NCBI GenBank assembly: GCA_016208685.1
Contig: JACQXM010000044.1
Coordinates: forward strand, 5,349-69,348
Length of the DNA: 64,000 nucleotides
From: Planctomycetota bacterium
GTDB taxonomy: Bacteria > Planctomycetota > Phycisphaerae > UBA1845
Direction: 5' to 3'
The notes beneath the pieces were generated by a model. That model was not told the DNA's origin, ran no database searches, and saw nothing but the letters and a program-made list of their open reading frames with translations. The position numbers and the translations under genes were made by a program. Position 1 is the first letter of the stretch. Each line of letters opens with the position of its first letter. Below are positions 12,855-64,000 of the stretch, in pieces.

Positions 12855-12879
12855 GTAACTGTCCGCGGCGGCGGGCATC
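12855..12879 (+). promoter_or_regulatory. Candidate ECF promoter GTAAC-N15-GCATC (copy 1)
   Basis: Intergenic, upstream of GH63; the same motif occurs at 18428, 24187 and 33444. Confidence 0.6.
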
Positions 12880-13151
12880 CAAGTGGCGTCTTGCGTCTTG
12901 TAGAACTGACTGAAGCGTGCCTTCGCCCCCAGCGCAGCGCGCTGCGCCGGTCGCCGGGCCGCGATCGGGACAGCTGTGACCGTTCTCGGCAACCGACGCG
13001 CCAGTGCGGCATGCGTGGCAAGCCCCCGCACCGGGCGCCCGGAAGATCCGAAACGCCGTCGGAGTTCCGAAAACGTCGGGCGGGCGTACGGGCGGCAGCG
13101 TTCACTGCCACCCGACCCTGCCGGCGCTCCGACGCCACCGCGAGGAAGGGT

Positions 13152-45876: not shown

Positions 45877-47382
45877 TCAGAATCGGATTCCCGACGCCTG
45901 ACAACCCGCATACCAGACTGCCGCCGCGACGGCGCACCAGCGCAACCCGTTCCCGAGGCACCAGAGGCGGCCGCGCGGTTCGCTTGACGCCGCGTTCGGC
46001 CCCGGCGATCCCTCCGCCGGCTCGACAGTTGCGGGTGCCGTCCCCGCGGCGGTGTCGGGAGCATTCGGCCCCGACGCACTCCCCGGTCGGCGGCGGTCAA
46101 CGATCACCATCGCCAGAATGCCCGCGTAGAGCAGCATCAAGGCAAACCAGGACTGCCGCAGCAGACGGATCACGCTCCAGGGCAATACGTCGTAAAGCAG
46201 ATTGTACGAAGTCGATGAATGGTAGCCGCCGGCTGGAGCCATCATCACCCCGTTCGCCAAGAGTGCCATCGCCAGCGCCAGCGGCACGAGGGCGCGGCCC
46301 AGCCGCTGACCGATTGCCGGCTTCCGGAAGCTGTCAATCAGTGCGAATAGGGGAAAGGGCAGGAAGGTCAGCGTGTAACGGTACGACCGATTGGGGAAGA
46401 CGTTCGCGGCGATCAGCAAGGCGGAGTACACCAGCGCCTCGGTTGATTGACCGGCAAGGTTGCGGTGTCGGAGCGCGAGCAGGAATGGCACGAGCAGGAG
46501 CGCCACATTGACGATGACGGCGGCGATGCCCACGGCTGCCGGGTCGGCCTCGCTGCCCGCCAGCATGAGGAGCACCGACAAGGTGGAGTGATTGTCGGGG
46601 TCGCCTTCCCGCACCCGCGTGTGGTAGCTGAGGATGAGGCGGAGGTAATCAGCGTACAGGGTCGGACCGCCGGTGCAGAGGATGAGAACGGTCGCGAAGC
46701 CGAGGGTCCAGAGCACGATTGCCAGTCGTCGGCGCGCGGCCCAATACAGGAGCAGAAACGCCGGATAGAGCTTGAGGAGCGCCGCCACGGCGAGCAGGAA
46801 ACCCGCGGTGACCGGGTCGCGACGGCGAGTTCCGAGGTAATAACCGAGGACGAGAAGACCTATGACCGGCGAGTGTGCATTGCCCCGTTCGTACTCGAAG
46901 TGGAAGGGGCAGGTGAGGAGTCCCAGGGCCACGGCATACGCATAGTGCACTCCGGTGAACCGGAACAGTCTGCCCAGCGTCCACACGGTGACGCCGTAGG
47001 CGCCGGCGAGGATGAGGACGTGCAGGCGGTAGGCGTCACCGACGGACATGCCGGCCAGTGGGCGGTACAGGACGGCGGCAAGCGGAGGATAGACGTAGGT
47101 CTGCGCCCGCGGATTCGCGATCTCGTCGGACCGCCCGTGGTACAGACTTTCACCGCGGGCCAAGTTGCTGGCACCGAGCCAGGTGCCGGCAAAGTCCTGT
47201 CCGGCGAGCGGTGCCTGCCCCGACCCGGGGAACCGGGCCACGTCGAAGTTCATGTTGTAGTGGTCCACGGCAATCACGCCGTGGAAAAGCTGAAAGGCGC
47301 CCAGTAGGATGACGAACACCAGGAGGAACAGTGCGCCCACGTCGGCGGCGGCGGGCTGTGATGGCGCGCGACGGTCCAGCAT
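45877..47382 (-). CDS. GT87/DUF2029 membrane glycosyltransferase
   Basis: QDF...W...LY, YVYPPL, ERGN, LKLYP, NHS. Confidence 0.8.
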   Translation of the reverse strand: MLDRRAPSQPAAADVGALFLLVFVILLGAFQLFHGVIAVDHYNMNFDVARFPGSGQAPLAGQDFAGTWLGASNLARGESLYHGRSDEIANPRAQTYVYPPLAAVLYRPLAGMSVGDAYRLHVLILAGAYGVTVWTLGRLFRFTGVHYAYAVALGLLTCPFHFEYERGNAHSPVIGLLVLGYYLGTRRRDPVTAGFLLAVAALLKLYPAFLLLYWAARRRLAIVLWTLGFATVLILCTGGPTLYADYLRLILSYHTRVREGDPDNHSTLSVLLMLAGSEADPAAVGIAAVIVNVALLLVPFLLALRHRNLAGQSTEALVYSALLIAANVFPNRSYRYTLTFLPFPLFALIDSFRKPAIGQRLGRALVPLALAMALLANGVMMAPAGGYHSSTSYNLLYDVLPWSVIRLLRQSWFALMLLYAGILAMVIVDRRRPGSASGPNAPDTAAGTAPATVEPAEGSPGPNAASSEPRGRLWCLGNGLRWCAVAAAVWYAGCQASGIRF

Positions 47383-47560
47383 TGGGATCACGGATACGAC
47401 TGAGGCGAGTATAGTGCCGCGCCACACCGAATTCCAAGTCGAATTGCCGGAAGATTCGCCGCTGGGGAACGGCGCCCGCGGGGGCGCACGCGGCGGTCCG
47501 TGCGAAGGAGGTCTCGTTACGCCCCGGCGCCGCCGCGAAGCGGCACCGCGACGCCTAAGC

Positions 47561-50446
47561 GTGTTACGGTTCGTCGTGAGTGTGATTGCGATTGGCGCGG
47601 CGGGCAGCGTCGTGTCTGCCGAACCGCTGCGCGCCGCGGCCTGTCCCCTCCGGCTTGAACCACCCACCGTCGACGGCGTCCTCAGCGACGACGTCTGGCA
47701 TGATCTCGACGAGCACGGCGGGTTCGTCGTGACCGGCGAGCGATCGCCCCACTACGGCTTTCGCGCCACCGCTCCGCGGGGCGACACGACCTTCCGCATC
47801 TTTCGAGGCCCGGACACGGTCTATCTCGGCGTCATAGCCCGCAGCCCCGCGGATCAGGACGGCGCGCGGAGTGCCGATGCCGAGGTGCCGGCCGGGTTGT
47901 ATAGCGACTGCATTCGCGTGTTCTGGACGGCCAGTGGCGGGGGTGAGGAGATCCTGGTGCTGGAGGTCGATCGCACCGGCCGTGCCAGCATTGCGGAGCC
48001 GGGACGCGCGGCGATGCCCTACGCGGGGCCGGTGGGCGTCCAACGTGACGAGGGATTCTGGTCAGCGGAGATCGGCCTTCCGGTAGAGAGGTTCGGCCTG
48101 ACCGTCGAGGGCCAGGTGGTATCCTGGAACGTGGCGCGCTTTCGCATGGAGGGCGGCGGCCCGCCGGAGCTGAGCTACTGGATGGAATTCGAGGGCGTCT
48201 CGGATGCGCCGTGCCGGCGGAGTCTGTTGTTCATCGGGTCGCCGCCGGCACTGCCGACGGCATACGAGGTGAAGGCCCTCCCCCAAGCCGCGGCGATCGA
48301 TGCGACGCTGGACCTCGTCGCGCGGGGTGGTGCTTCGGAGCTCGATGTGACAATGTCGGTCGGCGAGCACCCCCACGCCGATTCCGCCGAAGCGCGGGTT
48401 CGCCTGGGCTCCGAGGGTCGAGGCTCGGTGCTGTCGCGGTTGGCCGTGGGCAAGTCCGGCCCGACGGAACTGCGGTTTATCATCTCCGCGCCGGGAGGCG
48501 CTGGGACCTACACCTTCTCGCGACCGTTTTTCGGTTGGGACTGGCGGCAGCTCGGCGGAAGGCTGGACGCACTGAAGGCGCAATGCACGCAGATCGCAAA
48601 CCACGCGGAAACGCTCCCGCCCATCACTACTGAGGAAGCGAGCGTCTGGTTCTACGCGGACTGGCTTGCGTACCAGTTCGAGCACGCCACGTTCTCGCCG
48701 GAACGGCTGAGTGCGTGGCTTGACGAGGCCGAGCAACTGGCCGCGGGTACGATGCACCTTCGCGATCGTCCCGGCTTGCAGAATCGCGCCGTCTGGTCGG
48801 AACTCGACCAGAGCCTGCAACCGTACACGCTCTGGGTGCCGCGTAGTTACACACCGGACCGAGCGTGGCCGGTGGTCGTCGTCTTGCATGGGGGGATGCC
48901 GGATGATGGTTCGTGGAGCGCCCCCTATTGGGAGAACGAGCGCTCGCCCTATCAGGCGATCCGTACACTTGACGGGCATCACGTGGGTCGCTGGCTGACC
49001 GTTGACCTGCGGGATGAGTTCATTCTGTTGGCGCCGCGGGCTCGGCGCGGGGGATGTCAGCCATGGTGGGACGCTTACGAGGGACCCGCCGAGGACGACG
49101 TCCTGGCAGCGATTGACGACGCCGCCCGCACGCACCACATCGACCGCGATCGCATTCACGTTATGGGGTTATCACTGGGCGGTTGGGGCGCCACGTCCCT
49201 GGCGACCAAGATGCCCGGACGCTGGGCGTCGGCGGTGGCCAACTGCGTGGGCTGGAAGGAGTTCCGACACCGCAACCCGAATTGGGCCGATTGGCCGGCG
49301 CATCGCCAGTTCGTCGCCATGCGCTACAACCCCGTGGACCTGGCCGAGTCGCTGACCCATGTGCCGTTTTTCTTTCAGCTCAGCGAGAAGGACCAGAGCG
49401 CGGCGCTCGGACGGCCCCTGGCGACGCGGTTGCAACAGATCGGTGCGCACCATTTATTCTGGGAACGGCTGGGCGGTCAGCACTGCGACACGTTCGAGTG
49501 GGGGCCGCAGACCATCCGGCACTGGCTTACGACGCATACCCGCGCGGCTCTCCCGCGTCGCGTCCGGCACAAGACCGCGACGCTCCGACACGGGAGTTGT
49601 CACTGGCTTACGGTGCAGCAGTTCGAGACGCCGGGAGCGTTCGCGTCGGTGGACGCCTGGGTCGCGGAGGATGGATCCATCGAGGTCCACAGCCAGAACG
49701 TGGCACGACTCTCCTTGTCGCTTGGCGATGCACTTGTTGCGCCCGGCGAGCGTGTGGCCGTACGATGGAATCACGCGACAGTGTTCGATGGGGCGCTACC
49801 GCCCGACGGGGTCATTACCACGGGCCCCCACGGCGCCGTCACTGCTTCCGAAGGTGAAAAATCGCCGCGCCGGGAGGGGCCGATCGCCGATGCGGTTATG
49901 CAACCGTTCATGCTCGTCGTCGGGACCGAAGGGACCCCGGTGGCTGGGGCCGCGAATCGCCAGGCGGCGGAGCGATTCGGCGCGCTGTGGTTCAAGGCGC
50001 AGGGCGTGCTACCTCGGCACAAAACGGACGCCGAGGTCACGCCGTCCGATGTCGCGCGTTTCAATCTCATCTGCTTCGGCGGACCGGATAGCAACCGCAT
50101 GGTACGCGAGGCGGCCGCGTCACTGCCCTTCCGGTTCCTCGACGACGGCTTCGCGTTCGGGGAGCAGGAGTTCCGCGGACCGTCGCTTGGCCTGCGCGCC
50201 GTGTACCCCAACCCGACGAACCCGCAGCGGCTTTTGCAGATCAACGCGGGGAGTCCGGAGGCCATGAAGCGCCTCGCCGACATCACGGTCGACTTCGATT
50301 TCGTGGTCTTCGACGCGGATGTCGCGGGCAAGGGAATTCAGCAGGTTCCTGAGTTGCGTGCCTGCGGCTGGTTCGATCAACACTGGCGATTCGACGCCCG
50401 ACATCTGCACGCGGGCGGGCGGCGGCGGTCGGGCGAGGAGCGGTGA
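47561..50446 (+). CDS. Secreted CBM9-like plus alpha/beta-hydrolase (esterase/S9-like) protein
   Basis: PTVDGVLSDDVW, WSAEIGLP (CBM9-like); QPYTLWVP.SY....WPVVVVLHG, IDRDRIHVMGLSLGG (GxSxG), GGQH. Start codon uncertain. Confidence 0.75.
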   Translation: MLRFVVSVIAIGAAGSVVSAEPLRAAACPLRLEPPTVDGVLSDDVWHDLDEHGGFVVTGERSPHYGFRATAPRGDTTFRIFRGPDTVYLGVIARSPADQDGARSADAEVPAGLYSDCIRVFWTASGGGEEILVLEVDRTGRASIAEPGRAAMPYAGPVGVQRDEGFWSAEIGLPVERFGLTVEGQVVSWNVARFRMEGGGPPELSYWMEFEGVSDAPCRRSLLFIGSPPALPTAYEVKALPQAAAIDATLDLVARGGASELDVTMSVGEHPHADSAEARVRLGSEGRGSVLSRLAVGKSGPTELRFIISAPGGAGTYTFSRPFFGWDWRQLGGRLDALKAQCTQIANHAETLPPITTEEASVWFYADWLAYQFEHATFSPERLSAWLDEAEQLAAGTMHLRDRPGLQNRAVWSELDQSLQPYTLWVPRSYTPDRAWPVVVVLHGGMPDDGSWSAPYWENERSPYQAIRTLDGHHVGRWLTVDLRDEFILLAPRARRGGCQPWWDAYEGPAEDDVLAAIDDAARTHHIDRDRIHVMGLSLGGWGATSLATKMPGRWASAVANCVGWKEFRHRNPNWADWPAHRQFVAMRYNPVDLAESLTHVPFFFQLSEKDQSAALGRPLATRLQQIGAHHLFWERLGGQHCDTFEWGPQTIRHWLTTHTRAALPRRVRHKTATLRHGSCHWLTVQQFETPGAFASVDAWVAEDGSIEVHSQNVARLSLSLGDALVAPGERVAVRWNHATVFDGALPPDGVITTGPHGAVTASEGEKSPRREGPIADAVMQPFMLVVGTEGTPVAGAANRQAAERFGALWFKAQGVLPRHKTDAEVTPSDVARFNLICFGGPDSNRMVREAAASLPFRFLDDGFAFGEQEFRGPSLGLRAVYPNPTNPQRLLQINAGSPEAMKRLADITVDFDFVVFDADVAGKGIQQVPELRACGWFDQHWRFDARHLHAGGRRRSGEER

Positions 50447-50453
50447 AGACGGG

Positions 50454-52580
50454 TCACGGCGGCGCCGCGGGTTGGGCGGGCTCACCCAGCAGGGATAGGA
50501 ACGAGACCGAGTATTCCCCCTGGCTCCCCTCCGGTTGAATGCGCAGCGCCCTCGCCCGGCGCAAAAAGTCGGCGGGCGTCGCACGACGCCGCAGGCCGAA
50601 GTGTTCTACCGGTAAGACCGTCCAGGGATTGCCGAATGTCTTTCCGTCCTCAGAGAACTCGACGCGGTACTGGTCGTCGCTGTCGGCCTGGATCACCATG
50701 CGTCGGATCAATGTGACGTCCGACAGCGTGATGGTGACCGCACTGCGCCGGTCCACAAGCTGGACCGCGTACCGCGGGTCGTTCCACCGCGCGCCTTCCG
50801 GTTTGCTCGCCGGATCGAGGATGCTCTGCGGGTTGCCAAAGGAGGGCGTGTAGTTGCAGGTGACGATGCCGTTTACGGCCGGCAGCTTCTCCCCGTCCGG
50901 CACCAGGCGCACATTCCGATGGAACAGGGAACCGAAGGCATAGCTGCCGATGCGGCCCAGCCGGCTCGAGGAAAGCAGGGGGCCGGCCGTCAATAGACGA
51001 ACCTCTTCGTACCGGCGCTCGTCGGCGGGGTCGCGCCAATTCACACTGCGGGCCATTTCAGCGGCGTCGGCGATGAGCGACTCGTCCATGGCCGACACCC
51101 GCCGCTGCCAGTCTGGAAGCTGGCTGAGGGATCCGCGGGCGCGGAAGTACTCTCGCGGCACATCGTGGTGGATATGACCCACGCGGGAACCCGGCGCCGC
51201 CGGGCACCGCGCCGTATAGGCATCTGTCAGGCCGTAGGGGTCCAGGAAGCTCACTCCCGGCCCAGCCTGGTACGGGGCAATGCCGGCGGCCTCGTAGGTA
51301 ACCACGATAGGGCCAAAGCGACGGGCGTACTCTCGCAGCGCCAGGGCCCATTCGCGCCGGTTGGACATGTGCAGGTGGTTGTGTGCGAGCTCCGCCTGCT
51401 GCTGTAGCCGTTCGCGGAGAATGCCGGCGGGAGTAGTCTTCGTCGCTTGGTCCTGGTTGCCGAAGTCCACGGCGAATTGGACGGGCAATCCCGCGCCCAC
51501 GGCGGCAACCAGCAGGGCGATAGCGGGCTCGCGACTCAGGCGACGGCTCATGCCATAGGCGGCGACCGCCACGGCGCACACGATGGCGGGCGTCAGAAAC
51601 CGACCACGCACGTAGTCGCCCCCGACAAGCACGACGTAAGCAATGTGAAACCACGGAGCCAGGGCCAGGGCCAGCATGGCTTCCCGGTGCCCATCGCCGG
51701 AGGCCGGCCAGGCACGTGCGGTTACCAGGGCGATGATGAGACACAGCCCGACGATGGCCGCGTGCCCGGGATCAAACGCCACGAAGTCCAGCACATACGC
51801 CAGCCCTTGACGCGCCGTTTCGCCGGCAGACCGGAACCCCACTTTGGCGTAGGCCGTGTTGGGCAGCGGCGTGCCGTAGTAAACCAGGGCGAACGAGTAC
51901 CACAGACCTGCGGGCGTCAACGCCGCCGCGGTCCGCAGCCAGAGCTGGAGCTTGCGCGGCGCCGAAAGGAGCCGTCGGACGAGGAGTGCGCCAACGGGAA
52001 CACAGAAGAACAACAGGTCCAGGCGGTTGGTGAGGATCAGTCCGGCAAAGAACGCGGAGGTCGGCACGGTGCGTGCCTTATCTCCAACTTCGCCGACCAG
52101 CCCGGCCACCAGGCAGAGAATCAGCAGATGGGTAAGTGCATTCTCCAGGCCGGAGGTCTGGTAATCGAGCATGCTTGGACAGGTGAACCATGCAACCAGG
52201 GCGAATGCCAGAAGGAGGCTTCCCTGTGGACTGCCATGGAGCACCCGCCAGAGGACGAGAACCAGGAGCGCCGTGAGCACGGCACCGAGGATGATCGCCG
52301 CCCAGTACAGATCGCAGAATAATCCGCCCACGACCAGCACCGCGAACCAGAGCGGATGCGTAAAGCCCGGGACGCGCTCACCAGCGTTGTACACCGGTCC
52401 GTAGCCGGCGAGGAAGTTTTCGGCATAGCGGAAGGTGATGTATGCGTCTTCGGTGACCCATGCGTGCGAAAGCACCAGGCAAACGGCGATCGCCGCGGCG
52501 CCGAACCCCACGGCGCGGCGTGTTGCCATTGCCTCCGGCGAGGCGTCGGTCTGTGGTGGCATTTCGAAGGTCGGAAGCAT
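50454..52580 (-). CDS. GT-C membrane glycosyltransferase (AftB-like) with a C-terminal discoidin-like domain
   Basis: EDAYITFRYA.N...G.GPVYN.GERV.GFTHPLW, SGLE, RLD, YYG.PLPNTAYAK, GGDY..GRF; C-terminal IQADSDDQYRVEFSEDG. Confidence 0.8.
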   Translation of the reverse strand: MLPTFEMPPQTDASPEAMATRRAVGFGAAAIAVCLVLSHAWVTEDAYITFRYAENFLAGYGPVYNAGERVPGFTHPLWFAVLVVGGLFCDLYWAAIILGAVLTALLVLVLWRVLHGSPQGSLLLAFALVAWFTCPSMLDYQTSGLENALTHLLILCLVAGLVGEVGDKARTVPTSAFFAGLILTNRLDLLFFCVPVGALLVRRLLSAPRKLQLWLRTAAALTPAGLWYSFALVYYGTPLPNTAYAKVGFRSAGETARQGLAYVLDFVAFDPGHAAIVGLCLIIALVTARAWPASGDGHREAMLALALAPWFHIAYVVLVGGDYVRGRFLTPAIVCAVAVAAYGMSRRLSREPAIALLVAAVGAGLPVQFAVDFGNQDQATKTTPAGILRERLQQQAELAHNHLHMSNRREWALALREYARRFGPIVVTYEAAGIAPYQAGPGVSFLDPYGLTDAYTARCPAAPGSRVGHIHHDVPREYFRARGSLSQLPDWQRRVSAMDESLIADAAEMARSVNWRDPADERRYEEVRLLTAGPLLSSSRLGRIGSYAFGSLFHRNVRLVPDGEKLPAVNGIVTCNYTPSFGNPQSILDPASKPEGARWNDPRYAVQLVDRRSAVTITLSDVTLIRRMVIQADSDDQYRVEFSEDGKTFGNPWTVLPVEHFGLRRRATPADFLRRARALRIQPEGSQGEYSVSFLSLLGEPAQPAAPP

Positions 52581-52658
52581 GTAGCAGAACCGTCAAGCTG
52601 GGTAGATCGAATTAGGTAGCCTGGTGTACCGTCTCGTTGAGAGTTCACCGTATCCAGC

Positions 52659-52676
52659 CGCGGGCTTCAGCCCGCG
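52659..52676. repeat. REP-like hairpin
   Basis: CGCGGGC-TTCA-GCCCGCG, intergenic. Confidence 0.45.
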
Positions 52677-53222
52677 CGGCCCCACGAAGGCCGAAAGTCC
52701 GCTACGAGAGCGGTCCACGGACAGTCAGGTAATTGCGAGGTACCAGACTAGTGGCGTCGCCCCGGCTGTCAACGGGTTCTCGGCGCGGCTGATTGTGCCT
52801 TTGGAGCGTGTGGCCAGTGTTCTTGCCCGCGATTGAGACCGAAGCGGCAAAGCGATCGCGGACACTGCCGCGGCACCGGCCCTCACTGTGGGCGCGGTTC
52901 TGGCCTCGTGCGATTCTTCACAAAGTAGAGATCGGGGGCACGCCGCGCGGGCTCGGAAAAAAAAGACGGTATGTATGAGAAAAACCGCCCGTGTCGTGCC
53001 AACAGTCGATGGCGGCGCGCGCATGGGCGCAGAACGAGGCCGCCGCCGGCCGGCGTTGGCGCCCGATCTCTTACCCGTGCGCCGCCGGCGCCAGTACGTG
53101 GTGTCTCGGAGAGGCAGGCGGGGCCGTTCGTCTCTCCCGGGCACGGGCCTTCGTTGGGTTCGGGGCGGTCCGGGCCCGGGTCGAACCTCGGCACGCAGCG
53201 AGTCATGGCGAGGGAAGCGGTT

Positions 53223-56200
53223 ATGTCCATCGGCAAACGAGAGCTCGGGTTTGCAAGTCTGGCGTGGCTGGTGGCGGTCTGTCTGGTTTTGACCGTTGGG
53301 GTCATCGGCCTGATGGGCCCGCAGAGCGGGAGCGGCCGGCCGGCGCGTGAATCGGGCGAGGCCCGACAAAAGGCCCGGGCGACCTCGGAGCCCTTCACGG
53401 AGCCGCTGGTGAACAAGGTCGGCGACTGGTACTTCGAAAACGTGCGCGCCGATTCCGACCCCGACTTCCAGGCGGTGCTGATGTTTCAGCCTCCGGGCCG
53501 TCGTCGCATCGATCGGGTGGCGTTCCCCGCCGTGCTGGCGATTCCGGAAAGCGGGGACCTGGAGAACGGCTGGGACGCCGCACGGTTGTTCGCTTTCGTA
53601 GGGGCGGGCCTGGCCGACGCCTTGCGGTCGTTGGATGTGGAAGAGCGCTACGACCTGTCCTCGCTGGCGGCGCACCCGGAGTTAGGCGCTACCCTGGCGT
53701 CCCTGCGAAGCGGAGAGGGCTTGGAGGGTCGGGGTGAGTGGCAGGTGCTGACCAACTCCCTCCTGCCGCACCTATCGCGGTTTCCCCCTGACGGCATGGC
53801 CGCGGATTTTGACGGCAACGGCGTGGTGAGCGGCTGGGAGTTTGACGCCATCGCGGCGGTGGTCCGGGAGTCGGGCGCGCCGCCGTGGTACGAATCGGCG
53901 GAGGACGAGTTCAGTTTCGCCAGCACGCCGAACGGCCTGCTGCTCTGGCGGCAGCGGGAGCCGGAGGCCGGTGACGACCTAAAGACCATCGCCCTGTGGT
54001 ATGCGTATCGCGAGCGGCTGTTCTACACCTATCACGGCGACGACATTCGCCTGGCGCTGACGGATTTCGAATCGCGCTGGCCGGAGGATTTCGCGGTGCT
54101 GGCGCGGGAGGACGGTCGGCTCCAGGAGCTCTATGCCGCGGGGGTGGAGGCGGAGCAGGCGGCGAATCAGAAATCGGTCGGGTATTGGGAAGCGGCCCAG
54201 GGGAGCCTCTATGAACCAGAGGGGAGCGTAGTCTCGCCGGACGAGCCTCGCCAGATCCCGATGCTGCTCGGCGATTTCGACGGCGACGGGCATGTCACGG
54301 AGGGCGACTTCAGGTACCCGGACGATGGAGCCATGCCGTCGGTCTTCCGCGCGAACCAGGCGGGTCTGCTGGCGCTCGTCATTCAGATCGCCGATGTGAA
54401 CCGCTTCGGCTCGGAAAAGGCCGGTCCTCGCGATGCGCAGTGCGGGGATGGGGACGGTGACGGCGACGGCGATGGCGACGGCGATGGCGATGGCGATGGC
54501 GACGGTGACGGAGACGGTGACGGAGATGGCGACGGTGATGGGGACGGGGATGGGGATGGGGACGGGGATGGGGATGGCGATGGGGATGGTGACGGTGACG
54601 GTGACGGCGATGGCGATGGCGACGGGGATGGAGATGGTGATGGCGATGGGGACGGCAGTGGCTGCTTCGTTAGCGGAACGGTCGTCTCGACGCCCGAGGG
54701 GTTCGTCCATATTGAGGAGTTGACCCCGGACACCCAGGTTCTGAGTCTGCACTTTCGCGGCGCTGCCGAGACACCGCGCATGGTGACGCAGGTGACGCGT
54801 GTGCTGGCCCGGGAGACGGTAGAGGTGCTGGTGGGGGGCGAGCTTTTCGAGAGCACCCCCGAGCACCCCTATTACGCGCGAGGCCGCGGATGGACGCCGG
54901 CGGGGCAGCTTCGGGGCGGGGTATCGGTGGCCACCGCCGATGGTTGGATTCCGGTGAGCCAGGTGCGGCGCACGCAGCGCAGCGAGTCGGTTGCGGTGTA
55001 TAATCTTCATGTGCGGGAGGATCAGAACTACTTCGTCGGCCGGCGGCAGGTGCTGGTGCATAACAAGAAGATTCCGCCTGTCGTGCTGGCGGCCCTCATG
55101 TCCGGAAATCTGCGATTGGCATCTGAATATGACGACGAGAAGTCGACGAGCGGCGACAGTTCGAGTCCGTTCCCACGCCGCAGGCTGCCGGCGCAGGCCT
55201 ATCAGCCGGTCTGGTACGAAGCCTACCTCACGGACCCGGACGGCTTCGTCGAACGCGCCACGCGCTCGGACGGAAAGTCGTTCATGCTGGGCGAGTGTGA
55301 CGATGGAAACGACTGCACCTCGGACGCATGTGTAGATGGCGCCTGTGAACACACCTGCGGCGGCACGTGCGCTGGTTGTGGGCCCGGGAAAGCTTGCCTG
55401 CCGCCGCCGGTCAACTTGAAGCTGGCCGGATGCATGTGCTCGATGTTGGCTTCGTTCACCATCCAGAATAAGACCGCCTGCCCCGGCGAGACGGTCCAAC
55501 TGAACGTAACCGGGAGCTGCGACGACGACAACTGTGGCGGCGGGACCATGACCCTGAGCATCACACGCCAGCCAACGGATGGAGCGGCGCGCTTCGTGGG
55601 AAGTAGCAGCATCCCTTGTGACGACGCCACCCATACGCGCATCGTCGAGGTCGACGTGGACCCGGAGGCGCCGCAGGGCGCGCTAACCTTCGAGATCACC
55701 GGCTACCCGCCGGACGGAAACGACATCGTCAAGACCGGGACGGTCACCGTGAGCGAGCGGGTGAATCTGAGCTTCGCGTACACGCCCTCGGCGGAAGAGA
55801 CCGACCCCGGCGGGTTGATCGTTCTGAATACCGACGACGACAACAACAACGGCACGATCGACATCTTCGACACCGGACCGGATCCCGAGTTGCTCCCGCT
55901 GGCAATTTGGGTCGACCCCGCCCTGGCCGGTACGGTGGAGCTGTCGTATGTGAGCGGCGCCGGGAAACTCAGGTTCTGGGATGATCCTGCACGCGTTACC
56001 GCGATTGCACTGCCCAAGACGTGGACCATCGCCTCCGACCTGCCGCGTACCATCTACGTGGAGGGTTTCATCGGAAGCGCGTCGATCGGTGATGTTGAAT
56101 TGAAGCTGCTGTACACCGGGCCGACGACACCGCCGAATCCGCCGTGCGAGGATCGGCTGAAATTGACGGTGGCGAAGGTACTCCTCAAGGCAATCACCTT

Positions 56201-57269
56201 CACGAGCGACCACGGGTTGATGCACGACAACAACAGCAACTACGGCCCGACCGGCCTGCTCTTCCCGGAACCGGAGTGGGATCCAACTCGCGCGCCGCCG
56301 CTGGACAACTGCCCGATCTCCCATACCAAAGACCAAAGCGTGGCGGTCAGCCTTACCCTGGATGTGCAGCCGGCGCTGCCTGCCTCAACGTTCAATAATG
56401 ATCTTCGCATGGAGTGTGTCGGGCCCTCGGGGCTCAACCAGGACGCCCAGGTTGGTCTGGCTTCCGGGCTTCAGAGTCTCGCGATGACCTCGCCGGATCC
56501 TCTGCCCGATCAGATCCAGCGGATCGAGTCACAGTTGACGTGGCGGTTCATGCGCGGAGGAGGACAGCTTTCCCGCACCCTGTCCGGCCCCCACACGGTC
56601 TACGTGACGATGGGCACTCCGCGTAACACCGGCGATTCGCGCTACAAGGTGACGCAGAAGCGCATGGAACGTGCGGTGGAGGAGGGAAGCGCTGCCGGCT
56701 CACTGAACCCCTTTACGATCATCCGAACAGTCATTCAGTCGCAGGGTGCCTATGACATTGACGCGCCGCAGAGCAACGCATGGCTCGTGCCGGACAACGG
56801 CGGTGACTGCCAGTCAATTGTGCGGTTCGCGATCAAGGTCGCCAACATGCTTGACGTTCCGGCAACCGTGGAGCACCGCAAGGTTTACGCGGTTGACGAC
56901 GATCCGGCAACACCCCCATACGAACCGGCGACCGCGATCGAAGTGGACGGCAACACGCATGACGGTTTGAATAGCGATCCACGTGGCGACCACCCCAACG
57001 GGTACTGGTGGCTTGCGCTGGTGGACGGCGACGGCGTATGCAACGCGTACGAAGCAACTGCGAAAGTGTCGGCGTGCGGAGACGTGCGTTATTTTGCCGG
57101 CGGCGTTCCGGGTGGGACGGGGTTTACCAACGCCGACGATGTGCTCAAGGTCTTCCACCCGGGATCGCTGTCCTGGATTTCGGCATCGCCGTGTGGCATC
57201 GAGGTCCTGATCTACTCGTACCCGCAGCCGCCGCAGATGTCGCTGCCCGACCCGCAGTGTGCGCCCTAG
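53223..57269 (+). CDS. 1348-aa exported protein: EF-hand-like N-region, (GD)35 linker, Hint autoprocessing domain, Cys-rich and Ig-like repeats, putative transglutaminase/papain-like C-terminal domain
   Basis: N-terminal hydrophobic segment; [10 protein letters not shown] and [10 protein letters not shown]; Hint CFVSGTVV...STPEHPYY...VYNLHV...NYFVG...VLVHN; [12 protein letters not shown]; NTDDDNNNG; GGDCQS. Confidence 0.85.
54444..54653 (+). repeat. Coding hexanucleotide repeat (GGN-GAY)x35 encoding (Gly-Asp)35
   Basis: 210 nt with synonymous third-position variation, directly before GSG-C of the Hint domain. Confidence 0.95.
54663..55064 (+). other. Hint (intein-like / pretoxin-HINT/BIL) domain, 134 aa
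   Basis: Cys1, block B TxxH (TPEH), block F VYNL.V, terminal HN; +1 residue is Lys. Confidence 0.92.
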
Positions 57270-57332
57270 TGCACGGTGAGGAAACCGCGGTTGCGTAGCA
57301 ACGTGATGTTATTAGCCTTAAGGAAACTCAAG

Positions 57333-58109
57333 ATGACGCGCACGAGCCAGACCATCGTCATCGTCACGGCGCTTGGTGCTCCCATTCTGCCCAGCGCGGT
57401 TGGCGCCGCGGAACCACGCCGCGTCGACGACGCCCATTTCGCGACCGTCGAGTACGGACGCTCGCAGCTTAAGGACCAGCCCGACGCCACGGCAGTGTTG
57501 ATTCCGTTCGCGCGGTTGGACGCCAGACTGCGCGCGCAGATGTACAATACGCTGGCGTTCATTCTTACCGAAGACGCGCATCCACAGGGAGCGGACAACA
57601 CGGATCAGCCGAGGATGCCGATTGTCGTTCGGGTACGCGCAGCGCGGGACCCCGATGACGATGACGTCATCGAATACGAGTGGACATACAACGACCAGAC
57701 CATTCGCGCCATAGCCAGTAGAAACGCGGTACGAATTGACATCGGGCTCGCGGAACTGGATCGGAACCCACGGTTCAGCGCCTATCCGCCGGCCTCCACG
57801 GCCCGCGCCCGAGCCCTGGTCGAATCGCTGATGCAGCTTCGAGGCGCCAATGCGTACGAACCGGGATTCGACGTGCGGCTGCCGTGGCCCGACGTACTGC
57901 GCGACGGCGTGCAATTCAGCTCCAACCCTGAACTGAACCTGCACCGACTGACCCGACTGCATGAACGGGTGGACGTTTTCGTAAAAGGGGGCGTCCTTTC
58001 CTTGCAATTCTACAAGAAGCCGGCGCAGTTGATGCAGTTCCAGGACGGTTCACAGTGGTTCGCGCCGGAGTTCCGCGCCGCCATCTGGGAGGATAGTGCG
58101 AAAGACTGA
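57333..58109 (+). CDS. Secreted hypothetical protein (partner/immunity-like 1)
   Basis: AAGGAA RBS; signal-like MTRTSQTIVIVTALGAPILPSAVGA; directly follows the Hint gene. Confidence 0.75.
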   Translation: MTRTSQTIVIVTALGAPILPSAVGAAEPRRVDDAHFATVEYGRSQLKDQPDATAVLIPFARLDARLRAQMYNTLAFILTEDAHPQGADNTDQPRMPIVVRVRAARDPDDDDVIEYEWTYNDQTIRAIASRNAVRIDIGLAELDRNPRFSAYPPASTARARALVESLMQLRGANAYEPGFDVRLPWPDVLRDGVQFSSNPELNLHRLTRLHERVDVFVKGGVLSLQFYKKPAQLMQFQDGSQWFAPEFRAAIWEDSAKD

Positions 58110-58200
58110 CGCGTGTCTACCTCGCCACCGTGGCCCTCCCCCCGGCGGTTGTCTAATACTGAACCGGAATGCGGGCGGCAGAAACTCTGAGTCATGGAGC

Positions 58201-59235
58201 ATGCTCCTGCCGCTGATCGGAGGGCTCCTCGCCTCTGTCGTCATGTCAGTCACTGAGGGCTTTGAAACCGGTCTGGTACGAAACGTACCTGGCAGACCCG
58301 GAAGGCTTCGTCGGGCGCGCCACGCGCTCGGACACGTTGGGCCTGTGTGCGTGGCCGTTCTTGCGATCGGTCCAGCCCGGGAGGCCATGCCTGCCGGCGG
58401 AGACATCGCCGGAGCCCGCGCCCCGCTTGCGATGGTGCGGGAGTTCACGTTGGCTCTGCCTGAGCCTACCCGCGCATACTTAGAGAGCGGCGCGATCGCG
58501 GACGCTTCGGACGCCTCGGAGGTGGACCCCTCGCTCATGGAATCAGCGCAGGAGTGTTCCGCGAAGTGGGTCGAGGCGATCATTCGGGCTGAGCATGTCC
58601 CGGACGACCTGCGGCGGCATATCGTCGGCGTGCGGAACGCCGTGAACGGGCGCGACGCCACGCGCGCCGACTTTGAACGCGGTGGCTTGCGATTCGTCGT
58701 GGTCCAGACCACGGACGGCCTAGTCGCCGTGATCCGTCCAGCAGGCGCCTCTACGGACGCCGGTAGCGTGACCGATCGGCTCCGCTTTCTTGGCGAACGG
58801 ATCAGCGCTACCTTGAACCATGCTCCTGCCATCCTCTACCTGGCGGATCGCGCGGAAGAGACGGAGGCAATGGCGGCGATCTCGCGGGGCGACCGTTTGC
58901 GGAATGAGAGAGGCGTTCCGCTGTCGGATGCCGAGCATTTGAGGATCGCCAAGCTTCCGCAACCCGAGCAGGCGGAGGTCATACAGAAGCTGACTCAGCA
59001 AGACGAGGAGGCACTCCGTCGGCTCGATCGCAGTCTTCCTGCAACGCTCGTCGGCGGGGCGCAGAACTACTGGTGGGGGCAGGTGCATGCGGCGTCGGAT
59101 GGTTTCACGGTGGTCGTATCCATCCAGAAGAGCCATGGTGGTGCGGCCCGCACGGTCGTGATCGAGGATTGGTTTCGAAAGCAGCGACTGGTTTCGCCGG
59201 GCGCCCGCGCCATGGCGCCGCTGCCTCCGCAATGA
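58201..59235 (+). CDS. Secreted hypothetical protein (partner/immunity-like 2), distantly paralogous to 57333..58109; 5' end chimeric
   Basis: Colinear motifs shared with the upstream gene (see findings); start uncertain (58201 or ~58388). Confidence 0.65.
   Translation: MLLPLIGGLLASVVMSVTEGFETGLVRNVPGRPGRLRRARHALGHVGPVCVAVLAIGPAREAMPAGGDIAGARAPLAMVREFTLALPEPTRAYLESGAIADASDASEVDPSLMESAQECSAKWVEAIIRAEHVPDDLRRHIVGVRNAVNGRDATRADFERGGLRFVVVQTTDGLVAVIRPAGASTDAGSVTDRLRFLGERISATLNHAPAILYLADRAEETEAMAAISRGDRLRNERGVPLSDAEHLRIAKLPQPEQAEVIQKLTQQDEEALRRLDRSLPATLVGGAQNYWWGQVHAASDGFTVVVSIQKSHGGAARTVVIEDWFRKQRLVSPGARAMAPLPPQ
58268..58333 (+). repeat. Diverged direct repeat of 55206..55271 (post-Hint segment)
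   Basis: 58/66 nt identical by manual alignment; PVWYETYLADPEGFVGRATRSD vs [22 protein letters not shown]. Confidence 0.9.
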
Positions 59236-60180
59236 GAACGGGCGCCGATCCGCTACGGTGGCGCCGGTGCGAGTCCTCGCGGACGGAAGGACGGCCGGGG
59301 CGTTGGACCAGCCTGCCGAGCTGGGACTGCGGAGTCGGATGGGGGTGGGCGAGCCGGGCGTGCTGATGGGCACGTCGTCACACGCATCGGCGTCCGAGTC
59401 GCCGACGCCGCCGACCACCCGGGCAGGCTCCTCTTGGTGCATCGTTCCATCGAAGGTATGCAGCAGGCGCCTGTGGTGCGGAGGGGGCACGGAAAGACCG
59501 CCAATGCCGCCGAAAGCACGATCGGCCCGATAGCCCAGGAGGGGGGCGCATGATCTACCTCCCCCGCGGCGGCGCTGGGCGTCGGCACTTCGTCATGCGA
59601 ACCTGAGTGACCACGTACGGTTCGACGCTGCCCGAACAGAGCCGCGACCGTACGGGAGCGGGCGGCAGCATGCCGGGCGGCGACAGTCCGCGCACCGTAG
59701 TCAGGCGGAACCGCCAACGAAGCGCTTTTCGAAAGCGCAACCCCGGGCTTGGCATGAGGCGACGACACCCCAACCCGCGCCGCAGTACCCATAATCATAG
59801 CGCGCCCGGCGCGCGGTTTTTCAGGCGGCGTCCAGGAAGTACGGCCCGGCGCGCCGGATGCTTGCGGCCCGGGCCGGCCCTTGGGGTCCCGCTGATAACG
59901 GAAGCCACTTAACTACATGTACGTTCGCACGATGGGGCGGCAGGCCGGGATCGGATCGCAAACACCCGGCGCCAGCAGAGGAGCGTGCCACGTCGGCGCG
60001 CCGGAGTCGCCGCCGTCGCCGGCGTAACCCCAGCCGCGGGACCGGCTTTCCCACCCGTCGATGGTACAATCTTCGGGACGGCGCGGGTTCTGGAAGCCGC
60101 TCCAGTGGTTTTGCATCGCACGGCCGACCGCCATGCCGCGATGCCTGGTGGGAGGGCCTTCGACGGGCCGGGAGAGACGA

Positions 60181-60828
60181 ATGGGGCGTGCCTGCACCAA
60201 CCCGGGCGATGAGGGCGTGCTGCCCGACGAGGCCATCATGCTCGATGCGCCGCGCGACGGGGAGGTCGTCGACCCTCTGGCATGGTACGACACGCCGGGG
60301 CCGTTCGAGCTGGAGATCGGCTGCGGCAAGGGCGGCTTTCTGCTGGCCCGCGCCCGGGCGCATCCCGAGCTTCGACTGCTGGGCATCGAGTGGGCCAACA
60401 AGTTCTACCGCTACGGTGCCAACCGCATGGCACGCTGGGGCCTGACCAACGTGCGGGTCATGCGCACCGATGCGCGGACGTTCGTGCTGCGGAGCCTGCC
60501 TCCGACGTGCCTGGCGGCGCTGCACCTTTACCACCCCGACCCGTGGCCCAAGAAGCGGCATCACAAGCGGCGGCTGGTTCAGGGGGATTTCGTGGCCGCG
60601 GCGGTGCGCGCTCTTGTCCCCGGCGCGCGGTGGTACGTGCAGTCCGACCACGAGGAGTATTTCGCCCAGATTCGTTCGCTTTTGAGCGCCCGGGCGGAGC
60701 TGCGCGAGCTGTCCGACGCCGAGTTCGACTGGCAGGGGGCCGAATGGGCGGCGGGCACCAACTACGAGATCAAGTACCGCCGGAAGGGACGGGCGATCTT
60801 TCGTGCGGCGTATGAACGCGCGCGGTAA
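60181..60828 (+). CDS. trmB: tRNA (guanine-N7)-methyltransferase
   Basis: ELEIGCGKG, LLGIE, HPDPWPKKRHHKRRL, SDHEEYF, TNYEIKY. Confidence 0.93.
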   Translation: MGRACTNPGDEGVLPDEAIMLDAPRDGEVVDPLAWYDTPGPFELEIGCGKGGFLLARARAHPELRLLGIEWANKFYRYGANRMARWGLTNVRVMRTDARTFVLRSLPPTCLAALHLYHPDPWPKKRHHKRRLVQGDFVAAAVRALVPGARWYVQSDHEEYFAQIRSLLSARAELRELSDAEFDWQGAEWAAGTNYEIKYRRKGRAIFRAAYERAR

Positions 60829-60857
60829 CGTGGCCGGCAGGGGCCCGGAATGGCGGC

Positions 60858-60939
60858 TGGTGCGAGAATCCCGTCTCGCACCAAGGCATCCCACGGCTCC
60901 GCCCGTTCGGCGGGTTGACCCTCCACCGGAGGGTCAACT
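60858..60939. terminator. Two strong hairpins downstream of trmB (terminator/REP-like)
   Basis: TGGTGCGAGA-ATCCCG-TCTCGCACCA and GTTGACCCTCC-ACC-GGAGGGTCAAC; no poly-T tail. Confidence 0.4.
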
Positions 60940-61755
60940 GCTCCCGCCTCACCCTCCGCTTTGCGGCCAGTGAGTTGTCCGGCGGTGGTAACTCGGTGGG
61001 CGGAGCGTAGCGTTGCGTGGCTGGCGGACCTACGGTGACCGTCGGCCGCCACGCTGTCGCGCTGAGCCGCCAACGAAGAGCCACCGAAGTTCTCAGTGGC
61101 GCGTTGATCTCCCCGAAGCCGCCGCACACGGGAAATCCTCTCGGATTCAATGGCAGTTTTGGCAGGGCTTTGACCCCCCGCAAAACGCGCAACCTAAAGT
61201 CCGAGCGGCGGTTACGTCATGGCAGGCCGCTGGGGTCCGACATGGGATTATGGGACGCTGCCGTATGCGTGTCAAGCATCGGCATCCGCACCAGGAAACG
61301 CGCGGTGAGAGCGCCCGTGCGCTCGCGTCAGGGCGGAACCTCCCAGCGGCCGGCGGGTCGTGATCGAGGCGCGACGGCCTCCCAAATCGCACCCCCGCGC
61401 CATCGCGCGGCGTACGCATGACGCGGCACGGCAGACCTTCCGGGCTCAGGGCACCGGCAAAACGGGCCGCGATGGACACGAAGCGAAACGCAGCGCGGCC
61501 GGCGCCCCATGAGTTTTGCCCCAGAAGGCGATCCGCGCGGGAGGGCAGCACGACCCCGTCGCGTCGTGCCCGCGACCACAAGCCGCCGCGGCGAGCCTGG
61601 CAACGCCGCCGGGCGCTGCTCGAAGGGCGTCCGTACAAAATCCGAACTTGGGCGCGGATTTTCCTTGACGCGCCCGGGGCGCGGGTACAATCGGACCAAA
61701 GAAGCAGCAACGGGCTTCAGGGAGGAAGCTCGCCACGGTCCAAGGACGGACGAAC

Positions 61756-62133
61756 ATGCGAATCTACAAGCTCACCAACTTTGTACTGGACCTGATCGCG
61801 GCTCTCGACTCCGGGAGGTGTCAGGATGTCACGCTCGAGGAGGTGCGGCAGCAGGTCGTCGACGGCACGGTTTTCGAATTCCTCAACCGCCGGCTCGAAT
61901 TCAACGGGGCGCTCAGCGTACTGGAACCCGTGGATCGCCTGGAGCTGCTGCTCGAGTGGGAGATGCTCCACGCCAGGATGGGACCGTACGTCTATCAGGG
62001 GCTGCGCAACGGACTGTGTGTGCTGCTCAATTACCTGCTGGAGGGCATCGCCCGCCGTGCCGAAACCCGAGATTACCGGCTGACGCCGGAGACCTGTGGG
62101 GCCGCGGTCGCCGGAGGTGAGGGGAATCGATAA
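61756..62133 (+). CDS. Hypothetical protein (125 aa)
   Basis: Normal globular composition, AAGGA RBS-like sequence, TTGACG...TACAAT promoter-like pair at 61665-61691. Confidence 0.65.
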   Translation: MRIYKLTNFVLDLIAALDSGRCQDVTLEEVRQQVVDGTVFEFLNRRLEFNGALSVLEPVDRLELLLEWEMLHARMGPYVYQGLRNGLCVLLNYLLEGIARRAETRDYRLTPETCGAAVAGGEGNR

Positions 62134-62218
62134 CACCAGAACGAACACCGTCGCGCCTTGGCGATGGTCGGACGATGGACCGTCCGGCCCGGCGCTACGC
62201 TCATGGAGGAGCCATCGC

Positions 62219-63550
62219 ATGCAGATCAAAACTATCCCCATCAAGCGCATCAACCCCGCGACCTACAACCCGCGCGTCGACCTCCAACCGGGCGACGCCG
62301 ACTACGACAAGCTACAGCGCAGTCTGGAGGAGTTCGGCTGCGTCGAACCCCTGGTCTGGAATCGGCGGACCGGCAACCTGGTGGGTGGGCATCAGCGGCT
62401 GAAGATCCTCGCGGCGCAGGGCGAAGCGCAGGTCGAGGTCTCGGTGGTCGACCTGCCGCTGCCCCGCGAGCAGGCGCTCAACCTGGCGCTCAACAAGATC
62501 GGCGGCGACTGGGACGAGCGCAAGCTCGCCGACCTGCTCACCGGCCTGGCGGAGATTCCGGAGTTCGACGTCGGGCTGACGGGCTTCGACTCCACCGAGA
62601 TCACCAACCTCCTCGACCGGCTCGAGGCCCTGGAGGCCGAGGATGACTTCGATCTCGCCGACGCCCTGGCGGCCGCAGACTGTCAAGAGCCTGTCACCCA
62701 GCCGGGGGAACTCCTCGAACTCGGACGACACCGTCTGCTCTGCGGCGACGCGGTCCAGCCCGACGACCTCGCCCGCCTGCTCGTCGGCGACAAGGCCGAC
62801 CTGGTGTTCACCGACCCGCCCTACAACGTGAACTACTACGGCGGGAACCGTCCCACGCCGCACAAGGCGCGGCCCAAGCGCAGCCGCTCCTGGAAGCGGA
62901 TCTACATGGACGACCTGAACCAGGACGAGTACGAGGCGTGGCTCGCTCGGATCATGCGCAACCTGCTTTCGGCGCTGGCTCCGGGCGCTGCCGTCTACGT
63001 CTGGAACGGCCACAAGCAATTTGGCCCCATGCACGCCTTGATGACAGAAGCCGGCGCGCACGTCTCTTGCGTTCTGGTGTGGGCCAAGGAGTCCTTCGCC
63101 ATCGGCTACGGCGATTACTCGCAGCAGACGGAGTTCTGTCTCTACGGCTGGAAGGCGCAACGCAAAGGTGGGGGCGAGAAGTCCGCGCATCGTTGGTATG
63201 GCCCAACGAACGAATCGACGCTCTGGCAGGTGCATCGCGATCGCACCCGCGAATATCGACACCCCACGCAGAAGCCCCTGGCCCTGGCGGAGCGTGCCCT
63301 GCGCAACAGCAGTCGGCGCGGGGAGACCGTCCTGGACCTGTTCCTCGGCTCGGGCAGTACGCTGATTGCCGCGGAGCGCCTGGAGCGCCGCTGCCTGGGG
63401 ATGGAGATCGATCCCCGCTACTGCGACGCCATCGTGCGCCGCTACCTGGCCTTCATGGGCGATCGCGCACCGAATCATCTGCTTGAGCGCTACCGCCTGC
63501 CCAGCGATGACGCGGCGAAGCAGGCACACCTCGCGGAGGCCACGGCATGA
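62219..63550 (+). CDS. ParB-like N-terminal domain plus DNA N6-A/N4-C methyltransferase (phage/mobile-element type)
   Basis: NPATYNPR, SLEEFG.VEPLVWN, VGGHQRL (ParB); HRLLCGD, TDPPYN, HPTQKP, VLDLFLGSGSTLIA, EIDPRYCD; GGAGGAG RBS. Confidence 0.92.
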   Translation: MQIKTIPIKRINPATYNPRVDLQPGDADYDKLQRSLEEFGCVEPLVWNRRTGNLVGGHQRLKILAAQGEAQVEVSVVDLPLPREQALNLALNKIGGDWDERKLADLLTGLAEIPEFDVGLTGFDSTEITNLLDRLEALEAEDDFDLADALAAADCQEPVTQPGELLELGRHRLLCGDAVQPDDLARLLVGDKADLVFTDPPYNVNYYGGNRPTPHKARPKRSRSWKRIYMDDLNQDEYEAWLARIMRNLLSALAPGAAVYVWNGHKQFGPMHALMTEAGAHVSCVLVWAKESFAIGYGDYSQQTEFCLYGWKAQRKGGGEKSAHRWYGPTNESTLWQVHRDRTREYRHPTQKPLALAERALRNSSRRGETVLDLFLGSGSTLIAAERLERRCLGMEIDPRYCDAIVRRYLAFMGDRAPNHLLERYRLPSDDAAKQAHLAEATA

Positions 63551-64000
63551 CCCCCGCAGCCCCCAACCCGCCAAACGAGGCTGGCCCCGACCCGGAGCCG
63601 GTGCTGGTGCTCATCAAGCAGATCAAGGAGAACCGGCTCGATCCCGCGCTGCTCTCCGCCGAGGACCGCCGCCGCTGCGTGGACGTGCTGGGCGCCGAAG
63701 GCTACAGCGTGCCGGAGATCGCCCAGATCCTCAAACGCGGCGAGCGCACCATCTACCGCGATCGCTTGGAACTGCGTGCCGCGCACGCCCTGGTGGTCCA
63801 TCCGCAGTTGGCGCTACAAATGGCGGGCGATCTCGTCCGGCAGGCGGAAGGCTCGATCGCCCGGTTGCGGCGCATCGCCCGCGAGCCGGCCGCCTCGGCG
63901 ATGGAGCGGAGCATGGCCGAGGCGGCGGCCTTCAAGGTCCATCTGGACCTGATCAGCAAGCTCCAGTCGATGGGCTACCTGCCGCGCATTCCCACCAACG
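63547..64000 (+). CDS. HTH-containing mobile-element protein (partial, runs off the right edge)
   Basis: ATGA overlap with the MTase stop; manual translation includes EGYSVPEIAQILKRGERTIYRD (HTH) and KLQSMGYLP. Confidence 0.7.
   Translation, partial: MTPAAPNPPNEAGPDPEPVLVLIKQIKENRLDPALLSAEDRRRCVDVLGAEGYSVPEIAQILKRGERTIYRDRLELRAAHALVVHPQLALQMAGDLVRQAEGSIARLRRIAREPAASAMERSMAEAAAFKVHLDLISKLQSMGYLPRIPTN

Follow-up and report, generated by a model that had tools for sequence, protein, structure and literature searches.

The stretch of DNA analysed here (the window) comprises 64,000 nucleotides (nt) of a Planctomycetota bacterium (GenBank assembly GCA_016208685.1, contig JACQXM010000044.1, positions 5,349 to 69,348 of the forward strand) and holds a polymorphic-toxin-type locus with a predicted PT-HINT releasing domain. 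A 66-nt segment at the joint between the fixed part of the toxin gene and its cargo recurs, in direct orientation, downstream of the gene that follows the toxin. We consider it somewhat better than an even bet (a probability of about 0.55) that this second copy is an evolutionary scar left by a past cassette exchange where the fixed and variable parts of the PT-HINT toxin meet. The principal features, in window coordinates, are:

52971-57269, plus strand: toxin gene, a 1432-codon open reading frame (ORF) with an N-terminal domain (N-domain), an Asp-Gly spacer, PT-HINT, a linker with the junction motif, and the cargo
54684-55064, plus strand: predicted self-cleaving PT-HINT domain spanning aa 572-698, which scores 31.2 bits with Pfam PF07591 (gathering threshold 27.7; E 3.1e-7)
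55206-55271, plus strand: copy 1 of the junction motif (aa 746-767), the final conserved segment on the fixed side, 8 codons ahead of the cargo
55296-57266, plus strand: cargo (aa 776-1432, 657 aa), comprising a Cys-rich CDDGNDC module, an Ig-like middle and a predicted beta-sandwich plus transglutaminase-fold domain
57333-58109, plus strand: partner 1 (258 aa, isoelectric point (pI) 5.5), with an N-terminus that by eye resembles a signal peptide
58217-58483, plus strand: relic-frame open stretch, from stop TGA 58214-58216 to the stop at 58481-58483 (88 aa; listed as ORF 58262-58483, 73 aa)
58268-58333, plus strand: junction motif copy 2, PVWYETYLADPEGFVGRATRSD, the putative orphan relic, reproduced in contigs of runs X1, X2 and X3
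58387-59235, plus strand: partner 2 (a 282-aa protein of pI 5.8 that lacks a signal peptide), within ORF 58096-59235

A 66-nt repeat found twice in the genome

A repeat finder paired 55206-55271 with 58268-58333 as a 66-nt direct repeat (58/66 nt, 88% identity). The two copies share a frame, that of the large upstream gene, and in it their peptides are identical at 18 of 22 positions and differ at four; the match on which the original prediction was built was thus reproduced exactly. Using tblastn with the C-terminal part of the toxin against a 1.8-kb target (58100-59900), the same pairing was recovered over 19/26 residues (QAYQPVW.. against RALKPVW..; E 1e-9), and every other match listed had an E value of at least 0.15. 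When the whole genome (4.79 Mb) was searched at the DNA level with 58110-58400, the query itself and copy 1 (E 6.3e-17) were returned, together with three matches of 23-27 nt at E values of at least 0.1; a protein search of the genome with the 73-codon ORF in the relic frame led to the same two places. The repeat is therefore far beyond chance, has two copies only in the 4.8-Mb genome and is no dispersed repeat. Exact-match runs between the copies measure 15, 1, 5, 0, 1, 8, 10, 0 and 18 nt.

We also looked for the motif beyond this genome, where it had been suggested that it might head diverse cargo genes. The back-translated motif had no matches in 185,579 species genomes, metagenome contigs and viral contigs. 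With two mismatches allowed, the order's 279 genomes gave a match in one, the genome under study, at its two copies. A word-based protein search with the motif gave no match, a weak result given that the window's own protein was also missed. In the collections searched, the motif heads no other gene.

Significant similarity between the surroundings of copy 2 and the toxin gene was found neither upstream (58100-58267) nor downstream of the repeat. Immediately behind the repeat, TLGLC (copy 2) resembles MLGEC (copy 1); this 'LG.C' extension (TGGGCGAGTGTG against TGGGCCTGTGTG, 10/12) would end the homology at Cys776, but on its own it lacks significance (the score is reached by 453 of 5000 shuffles; p = 0.09). 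Of the earlier statement that similarity ends after LGLC, the stop just past the repeat stands and the exact endpoint does not. Upstream, removal of one A had been proposed to reveal a further parallel (MLLPLIGGLLASVV.. against the post-Hint sequence). In Smith-Waterman alignments against the three frames of 58100-58267, scores were reached by 634, 686 and 914 of 2000 shuffles, and the best alignment in that frame differs from the proposed one; this parallel was not upheld. A downstream homology, built on the 25-nt repeat D8 (55382 against 58375, 80%) and a PG.aCLP resemblance, was recovered by neither tblastn nor MAFFT and was dropped.

The repeat marks the edge of the fixed part

The predicted PT-HINT domain is followed by 734 toxin residues, the first 77 of which form the linker between Hint and cargo. 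An exhaustive HMMER search with these 734 residues returned 762 proteins at E <= 1e-3. Among the 150 listed best stretches, none starts before query residue 76 (aa 774), and the junction motif occupies query residues 48-69; the repeat is thus on the fixed side, with the cargo starting approximately 8 codons later. Homology to the genome's second cargo locus (see below) begins at Cys776, 8 codons past copy 1.

Copy 2 diverged as coding sequence and is now read as an untranslated junction

The eight differences between the copies are confined to five codons, which random placement produced (five codons or fewer) in 1.9% of trials (P = 0.019). Half of the eight leave the amino acid unchanged; the other four replace it, for the most part conservatively (A/T, T/A, D/E, E/G). 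The proportions of synonymous and non-synonymous differences (pS and pN) are 0.25 and 0.08, with a pN/pS of 0.32. These codon-structured differences indicate that the copies diverged as coding sequence.

Ahead of the motif, the relic frame offers TTG 58262 but neither ATG nor GTG, and behind copy 2 TLGLC is followed by 44 unrelated codons to the stop. Across 58262-58381, GC content at third positions is 0.8-0.9 in the relic frame versus 0.3-0.7 in the partner 2 frame; from 58381 on, it is 0.7-1.0 in the partner 2 frame. High third-position GC continues in the relic frame as far as 58441; beyond the start of partner 2 it coincides with that gene's first codon positions, and only 58262-58386 is counted as relic coding signal. 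A search of the relic ORF against the 279 genomes gave 35 weak matches (E 3e-4 to 1e-2) that fell in its Pro/Arg-rich tail and not in the motif; many contained internal stops, and they are treated as compositional noise. A promoter/terminator scan yielded nothing useful. On these sequence features, copy 2 is read as an untranslated orphan junction.

The original prediction had copy 2 fused, out of frame, to partner 2, with ATG 58201 in frame with that gene. The frame relationship is correct, as a plain fact about ORF 58096-59235. The fusion does not follow from it: the public gene call for partner 2 is a 282-aa protein from ATG 58387, which is preceded by GGGAGG, and third-position GC follows the repeat's own frame. 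Because DNA of 66% GC commonly gives such extensions, the extension of the ORF back to 58096 or 58201 indicates no fusion. Partner 2 is most likely a separate gene starting at ATG 58387, judging from the gene call and its base composition.

A second cargo locus in the same genome carries similar relics

A paralogue of the cargo lies on another contig of the genome (C12). Its features, in coordinates of the extracted locus L057 (G000:C12:14000-33999), are:

8319-12959, minus strand: second cargo locus, with the partner 1 paralogue at 10158-11006
10118-9778, minus strand: first C12 relic (341 nt), 91.5% identical to toxin gene 12959-12619, with an open frame of 113 codons
8510-8319, minus strand: second C12 relic (194 nt), 92.3% identical to the adjacent toxin part 12604-12411

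The C12 toxin paralogue has 36-38% identity to the cargo from aa 776 on, and is directly followed by a paralogue of partner 1 (33-34% identity). Instead of a Hint chassis, it has Cys-rich repeats and a Sec signal. Cargo and partner 1 thus form a conserved two-gene unit on two different chassis. The first relic lies 40 nt past the partner gene and begins within 3 nt of the start of cargo homology. The two relics are 1.27 kb apart, separated by an unrelated signal-peptide, beta-propeller-like gene (L057 8602-9549). As at the window locus, their divergence is mostly synonymous (pS 0.22 and 0.16; pN/pS 0.19 and 0.37).

The C12 toxin paralogue is itself split between two frames (L057 ORFs 11733-14459 and 11057-11884, with a break at ~11884-11900 on the minus strand), reflecting either a frameshift mutation or an assembly error.

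Sequence reliability

The genome is a 77-contig metagenome assembly. The region is present in four public runs, all from one groundwater study, and the assembly may have been made from X1 and X2. The contigs of X1 and X2, independently built, span 54600-59400 without an indel and with 0 and 1 substitution, respectively; the latter, 59271 G>T in the X2 contig (depth 7.8), is the sole difference across this interval in the four runs. A 351-nt contig of X3 equals 58081-58431 with 0 differences. The suggested check for mis-assembly or an indel at 58261-58350 was thereby addressed with contigs of three runs, none with an indel. The copy 2 sequence is no assembly slip and there is no sign of an indel at the TTTGAAACCG run, with support limited to a single study. 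Among the runs' contigs, in which rare forms are missed, there was none joining the two copies.

Origin of the second copy

We envisage the following sequence of events. A predicted Sec-anchored protein carries PT-HINT, which by analogy with its family would cut itself at its C-terminal Asn and so release a short linker plus a cargo that ends in a predicted transglutaminase-fold cysteine enzyme; a putatively secreted partner follows. Most likely, a cassette of a diverged allele [junction-cargo-partner 1] recombined onto the gene at the site of copy 2. Its arrival would have pushed the former junction and the sequence after it downstream, and the sequence that once stood behind the former junction would since have been lost, or have been short. 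Partner 2 may be the surviving (immunity) gene of the displaced module. The proposal that copy 2 is the relic of a second cassette accordingly survives in part: the position at the boundary, the coding-type divergence and the second locus all fit the behaviour of an orphan junction, but the deletion of a cargo is not shown, and no allele with a cargo at that place was seen.

Several observations weigh against this history. There is no toxin domain behind copy 2, where the frame closes after 49 codons; from the junction Cys codon to ATG 58387 there are 38 nt, so a deleted cargo is assumed rather than seen. The collections searched contain no second allele, donor or motif-bearing relative. No evidence links partner 2, which is without relatives, family or usable model, to immunity. 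Eight differences are the whole basis of the divergence statistics; significance is lacking for the 'LG.C' extension, which would make homology end right at the junction; and the read evidence consists of contigs of one study, blind to rare variants.

Duplication in place, the main alternative, is unlikely. Here an ancestral Hint gene would have ended in the junction motif plus a 49-codon tail (58334-58483), insertion of cargo and partner 1 would have duplicated the junction, and partner 2 would be an old neighbour unrelated to immunity. Cargo-less forms are indeed common among relatives (7/13 related Hint genes with a recognisable HN end stop 2-4 codons past Hint), the relic frame is open to the stop at 58481-58483, partner 2 has no toxin-locus signature, and cargo plus partner 1 look acquired, being absent from two same-genus genomes as well as from G004 and G006. 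However, copies made in this way would start identical, whereas the 12% divergence, the pN/pS of 0.32 and the codon-clustered changes suggest two separately evolved alleles under selection. Since the divergence is of a coding type, and of about the same degree as in the C12 relics, recombined alleles of a related lineage fit better than a recent duplication in place. The tail would also overlap partner 2 by 97 nt, and its conservation is not demonstrated, the third-position GC past 58387 being explained by the first codon positions of partner 2. It is more doubtful still that copy 2 and partner 2 were once one frame, a junction plus a toxin domain of ~300 aa split by a 1-nt indel within 58349-58386, such that partner 2 is an orphan cargo. 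Both frames are open over 58262-58483, so that one indel would suffice to connect them, the junction lies only 38 nt ahead of ATG 58387, and the 825 nt past partner 2 could be a decayed immunity gene; in CDI (contact-dependent growth inhibition) orphans as described in PMC3150448, the toxin domain directly follows the junction motif. Yet partner 2 has its own ATG after GGGAGG and is called as a 282-aa gene, no contig holds an indel variant, and no toxin family, fold or relative was detected for it. Its coding signal has also stayed strong over 282 codons, where an orphan that is not expressed could have decayed freely.

The original prediction had also raised a recombination handle, and it is improbable to a greater degree that the copies are maintained as one, for a 3,062-bp deletion by which the module behind copy 2 would replace the cargo, the kind of role proposed for orphan modules of CDI, Rhs and Maf loci. 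Since the copies run in the same direction and lie in frame at the fixed/cargo boundary, the product would keep the reading frame, and in one published case (PMC3150448) such a deletion loaded an orphan module. Here a tail of 49 residues would take the place of a toxin domain in the product, and partner 1 would be lost; no contig shows the joint (a weak point, as contigs miss rare forms), and the motif heads no other gene in the collections searched. Efficient RecA recombination in E. coli needs roughly 20-30 bp, more than the 18 nt over which the copies at best agree without interruption. A bolder version strikes us as a similarly long shot: the junction motif would be a lineage-private equivalent of VENN for Hint-released toxins; copy 2 and partner 2 would form a silent module that is still live; the copies would recombine to replace the cargo by the Cys/Trp-rich tail of 49 residues, for which partner 2 would be the protecting protein; and the C12 relics would belong to the same shuffling system. 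Chance similarity or an assembly artefact can practically be discounted: the genome is a 77-contig metagenome assembly that may itself derive from two of the four runs, but the match has an E value of 6.3e-17 against the whole genome, agrees in frame at 18/22 aa, and is identical in X3 over 58081-58431.

The toxin gene and its relatives

Three further features of the toxin locus belong here:

53202 or 53205, plus strand: likely start of the toxin gene (GTG 53202 or ATG 53205), before a hydrophobic signal-anchor
54408-54691, plus strand: Asp-Gly dipeptide repeat spacer ahead of Hint (repeat families D1-D4)
56160-57266, plus strand: predicted beta-sandwich plus transglutaminase-fold domain, with an invariant Cys in GDCQxIVRF

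In the PT-HINT domain we read the first Cys in GCFVSGT, a TPEHP block and the end VLVHN (terminal HN). Hint segments were present in 17/61 related genomes, and among 13 related Hint genes with a recognisable HN end, seven stop 2-4 codons after Hint. The N-domain was common only to the homologue in G006 (1/17 related loci; 29% identity, with 35% in Hint). In that homologue, N-domain and Hint are shared, the post-Hint part is unrelated and the junction motif is absent; there were no stranded repeats at the G006 locus. With the query used, the toxin gene was not found in the two same-genus genomes, and cargo plus partner 1 were absent from both and from G004 and G006. A metagenome search with the fixed part gave 602 pattern matches, none of which was confirmed as a relative.

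The G006 homologue (L011/L030) has a Gly-Ser/Gly-Thr repeat of >200 residues at the position of the spacer, its composition unlike the Asp-Gly repeat here. At the related loci (L012-L019, L031-L038, L045), the seven Hint genes that stop early have the tails KPR*, KQ*, KTEW*, KGP*, KMR*, KPYP* and KSI*, i.e. a C-terminal Hint without cargo. In L034 and L045, the next reading frame opens with a CxxC...CPECG-type zinc-ribbon motif, then hydrophobic stretches; in L038 the CxxC...CPECG motif also occurs downstream of the Hint gene.

The cargo

The cargo matched no Pfam or NCBIfam toxin family. A Pfam scan of 21 of its relatives found eCIS_core (PF13699) in seven, fused to the C-terminal domain, Tse3_N in four, OmpA in three and Dicty_CTDC Cys-rich repeats in three; six had no family. 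In one relative of 2941 aa, the cargo's middle domain is repeated and a Toxin-deaminase domain stands at the end. From the domain contexts of these relatives, the cargo appears to behave as a portable effector that recurs on other trafficking and processing chassis.

The last 369 residues of the cargo were modelled from an alignment with 22 relatives (predicted local distance difference test, pLDDT, 91.2). Foldseek placed transglutaminase 3 first (E 2.2e-5), with factor XIII and transglutaminase 2 next and RhoGDI-like sandwiches for the first half of the domain. VIA-align, which is independent of Foldseek and covered 48,161 chains, likewise gave its highest ranks to transglutaminase 3 (Z 9.2) and factor XIII (Z 9.1), with 259 residues aligned at root-mean-square deviations of 6.6-6.7, and matched the bacterial protease LapG to the core alone (Z 6.0). 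Cys217 of the domain, in GDCQxIVRF, is invariant in 23 sequences. The model thus predicts that the cargo's C-terminal domain is a transglutaminase-fold (papain-like) domain with a putative catalytic Cys. The order of the two domains, beta-sandwich then transglutaminase core, is that of the animal transglutaminases (transglutaminase 3, factor XIII, transglutaminase 2), and the likeness to LapG-type transglutaminase-like cysteine proteases is confined to the core. Unlike in either group, neither the His nor the Asp of the Cys-His-Asp triad was identified in the cargo, and sequence identity is 8-10%.

The partner genes and their surroundings

Partner 1 has one outside homologue (P0003, 40% identity) and no relative by PDB sequence search; among 401 genomes of the phylum, it was found in this genome only, twice. 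Its position behind the cargo at both loci makes it a candidate cognate immunity or inhibitor protein of the cargo.

For partner 2, a search of 5.8 billion proteins returned itself as the only match. There was no match in 60 related genomes, Pfam or NCBIfam; a PDB sequence search gave E values of at least 0.5, the best Atlas score was 0.83 (in the chance range), and a single-sequence AlphaFold model had a pLDDT of 37.9. Comparison with gene X of the second locus showed no similarity.

The 825 nt between partner 2 and trmB (59236-60060) contain no convincing gene. Three-phase GC is inconsistent there, the ORFs (59258-59533 and 59607-59912 on the plus strand, 59253-59798 on the minus strand) are of low complexity, and the interval could be decayed coding sequence. 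When 47000-64000 was compared with the trmB regions of G001, G004 and G006, trmB (60061-60828) alone was shared, which makes the synteny uninformative, and neither the toxin locus nor its neighbours had a counterpart. Further on, ORF 62096-63550 encodes what we take, by eye and from its motifs, to be a DNA methyltransferase of the DPPY type with a ParB-like domain at its N-terminus, which might hint at a mobile element next to the locus.

Comparison with known systems and implications

As Zhang et al. (2012, PMC3482391) describe for polymorphic toxins, one recombination at the 3' tip brings a new toxin cassette and its immunity gene, leaving strings of immunity genes. In the orphan cdiA-CT fragments described by Poole et al. 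(2011, PMC3150448), start signals are missing, the boundary motif is kept, homology is lost right after it and immunity genes follow; the fragments are sometimes truncated or interrupted. Like the orphan cdiA-CT/cdiI and Rhs-CT/rhsI modules of that account, the fragment here points the same way as the toxin gene and comes after that gene's own partner. Copy 2 resembles them in having no start signal (an in-frame stop stands at 58214-58216), in keeping the boundary motif at 18/22 aa, and in homology that is confined to the fixed side and ends at the boundary, with a small ORF following; the truncated or interrupted fragments have their likeness at G000:C12. Unlike the CDI and Rhs orphans so described, the copy 2 motif is not followed by a toxin domain, the next ATG being 38 nt away; the motif belongs to this locus alone and is not, like VENN or PxxxxDPxGL, shared by a whole family; and the retained homology is only 66 nt at 88%. 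The chassis also differs, being a predicted Sec-anchored PT-HINT protein and not a two-partner secretion or Rhs protein.

The locus is close in layout to the Sec-exported PT-HINT polymorphic toxins of PMC3482391, with HINT just before a variable C-terminal region, partner genes following the toxin, and a cargo domain that rides another chassis elsewhere and has relatives carrying eCIS_core PF13699. It is unlike those toxins, as set out there, in its long cargo (657 aa in three parts), which matches no Pfam or NCBIfam toxin family, and in the 77-residue linker between Hint and cargo. The same source calls the PVC metallopeptidase functionally equivalent to HINT and lists transglutaminase-fold toxin domains.

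A relic of this kind would be an ordinary feature of such loci, an evolutionary scar rather than a working part, and no surprise to a specialist. If the cassette-exchange reading is correct, the leftover-module layout of CDI, Rhs and Maf loci would also occur in Sec-exported PT-HINT toxins of an uncultured groundwater bacterium, with two independent examples in one genome and the fixed/variable boundary pinned to within a few codons. The by-products are perhaps more useful than the relic itself: an uncharacterised, widespread family of predicted effectors (762 relatives) that would combine an animal-type beta-sandwich with a transglutaminase core, often fused to cargo markers of extracellular contractile injection systems (eCIS), and a conserved, putatively secreted partner as an immunity candidate.

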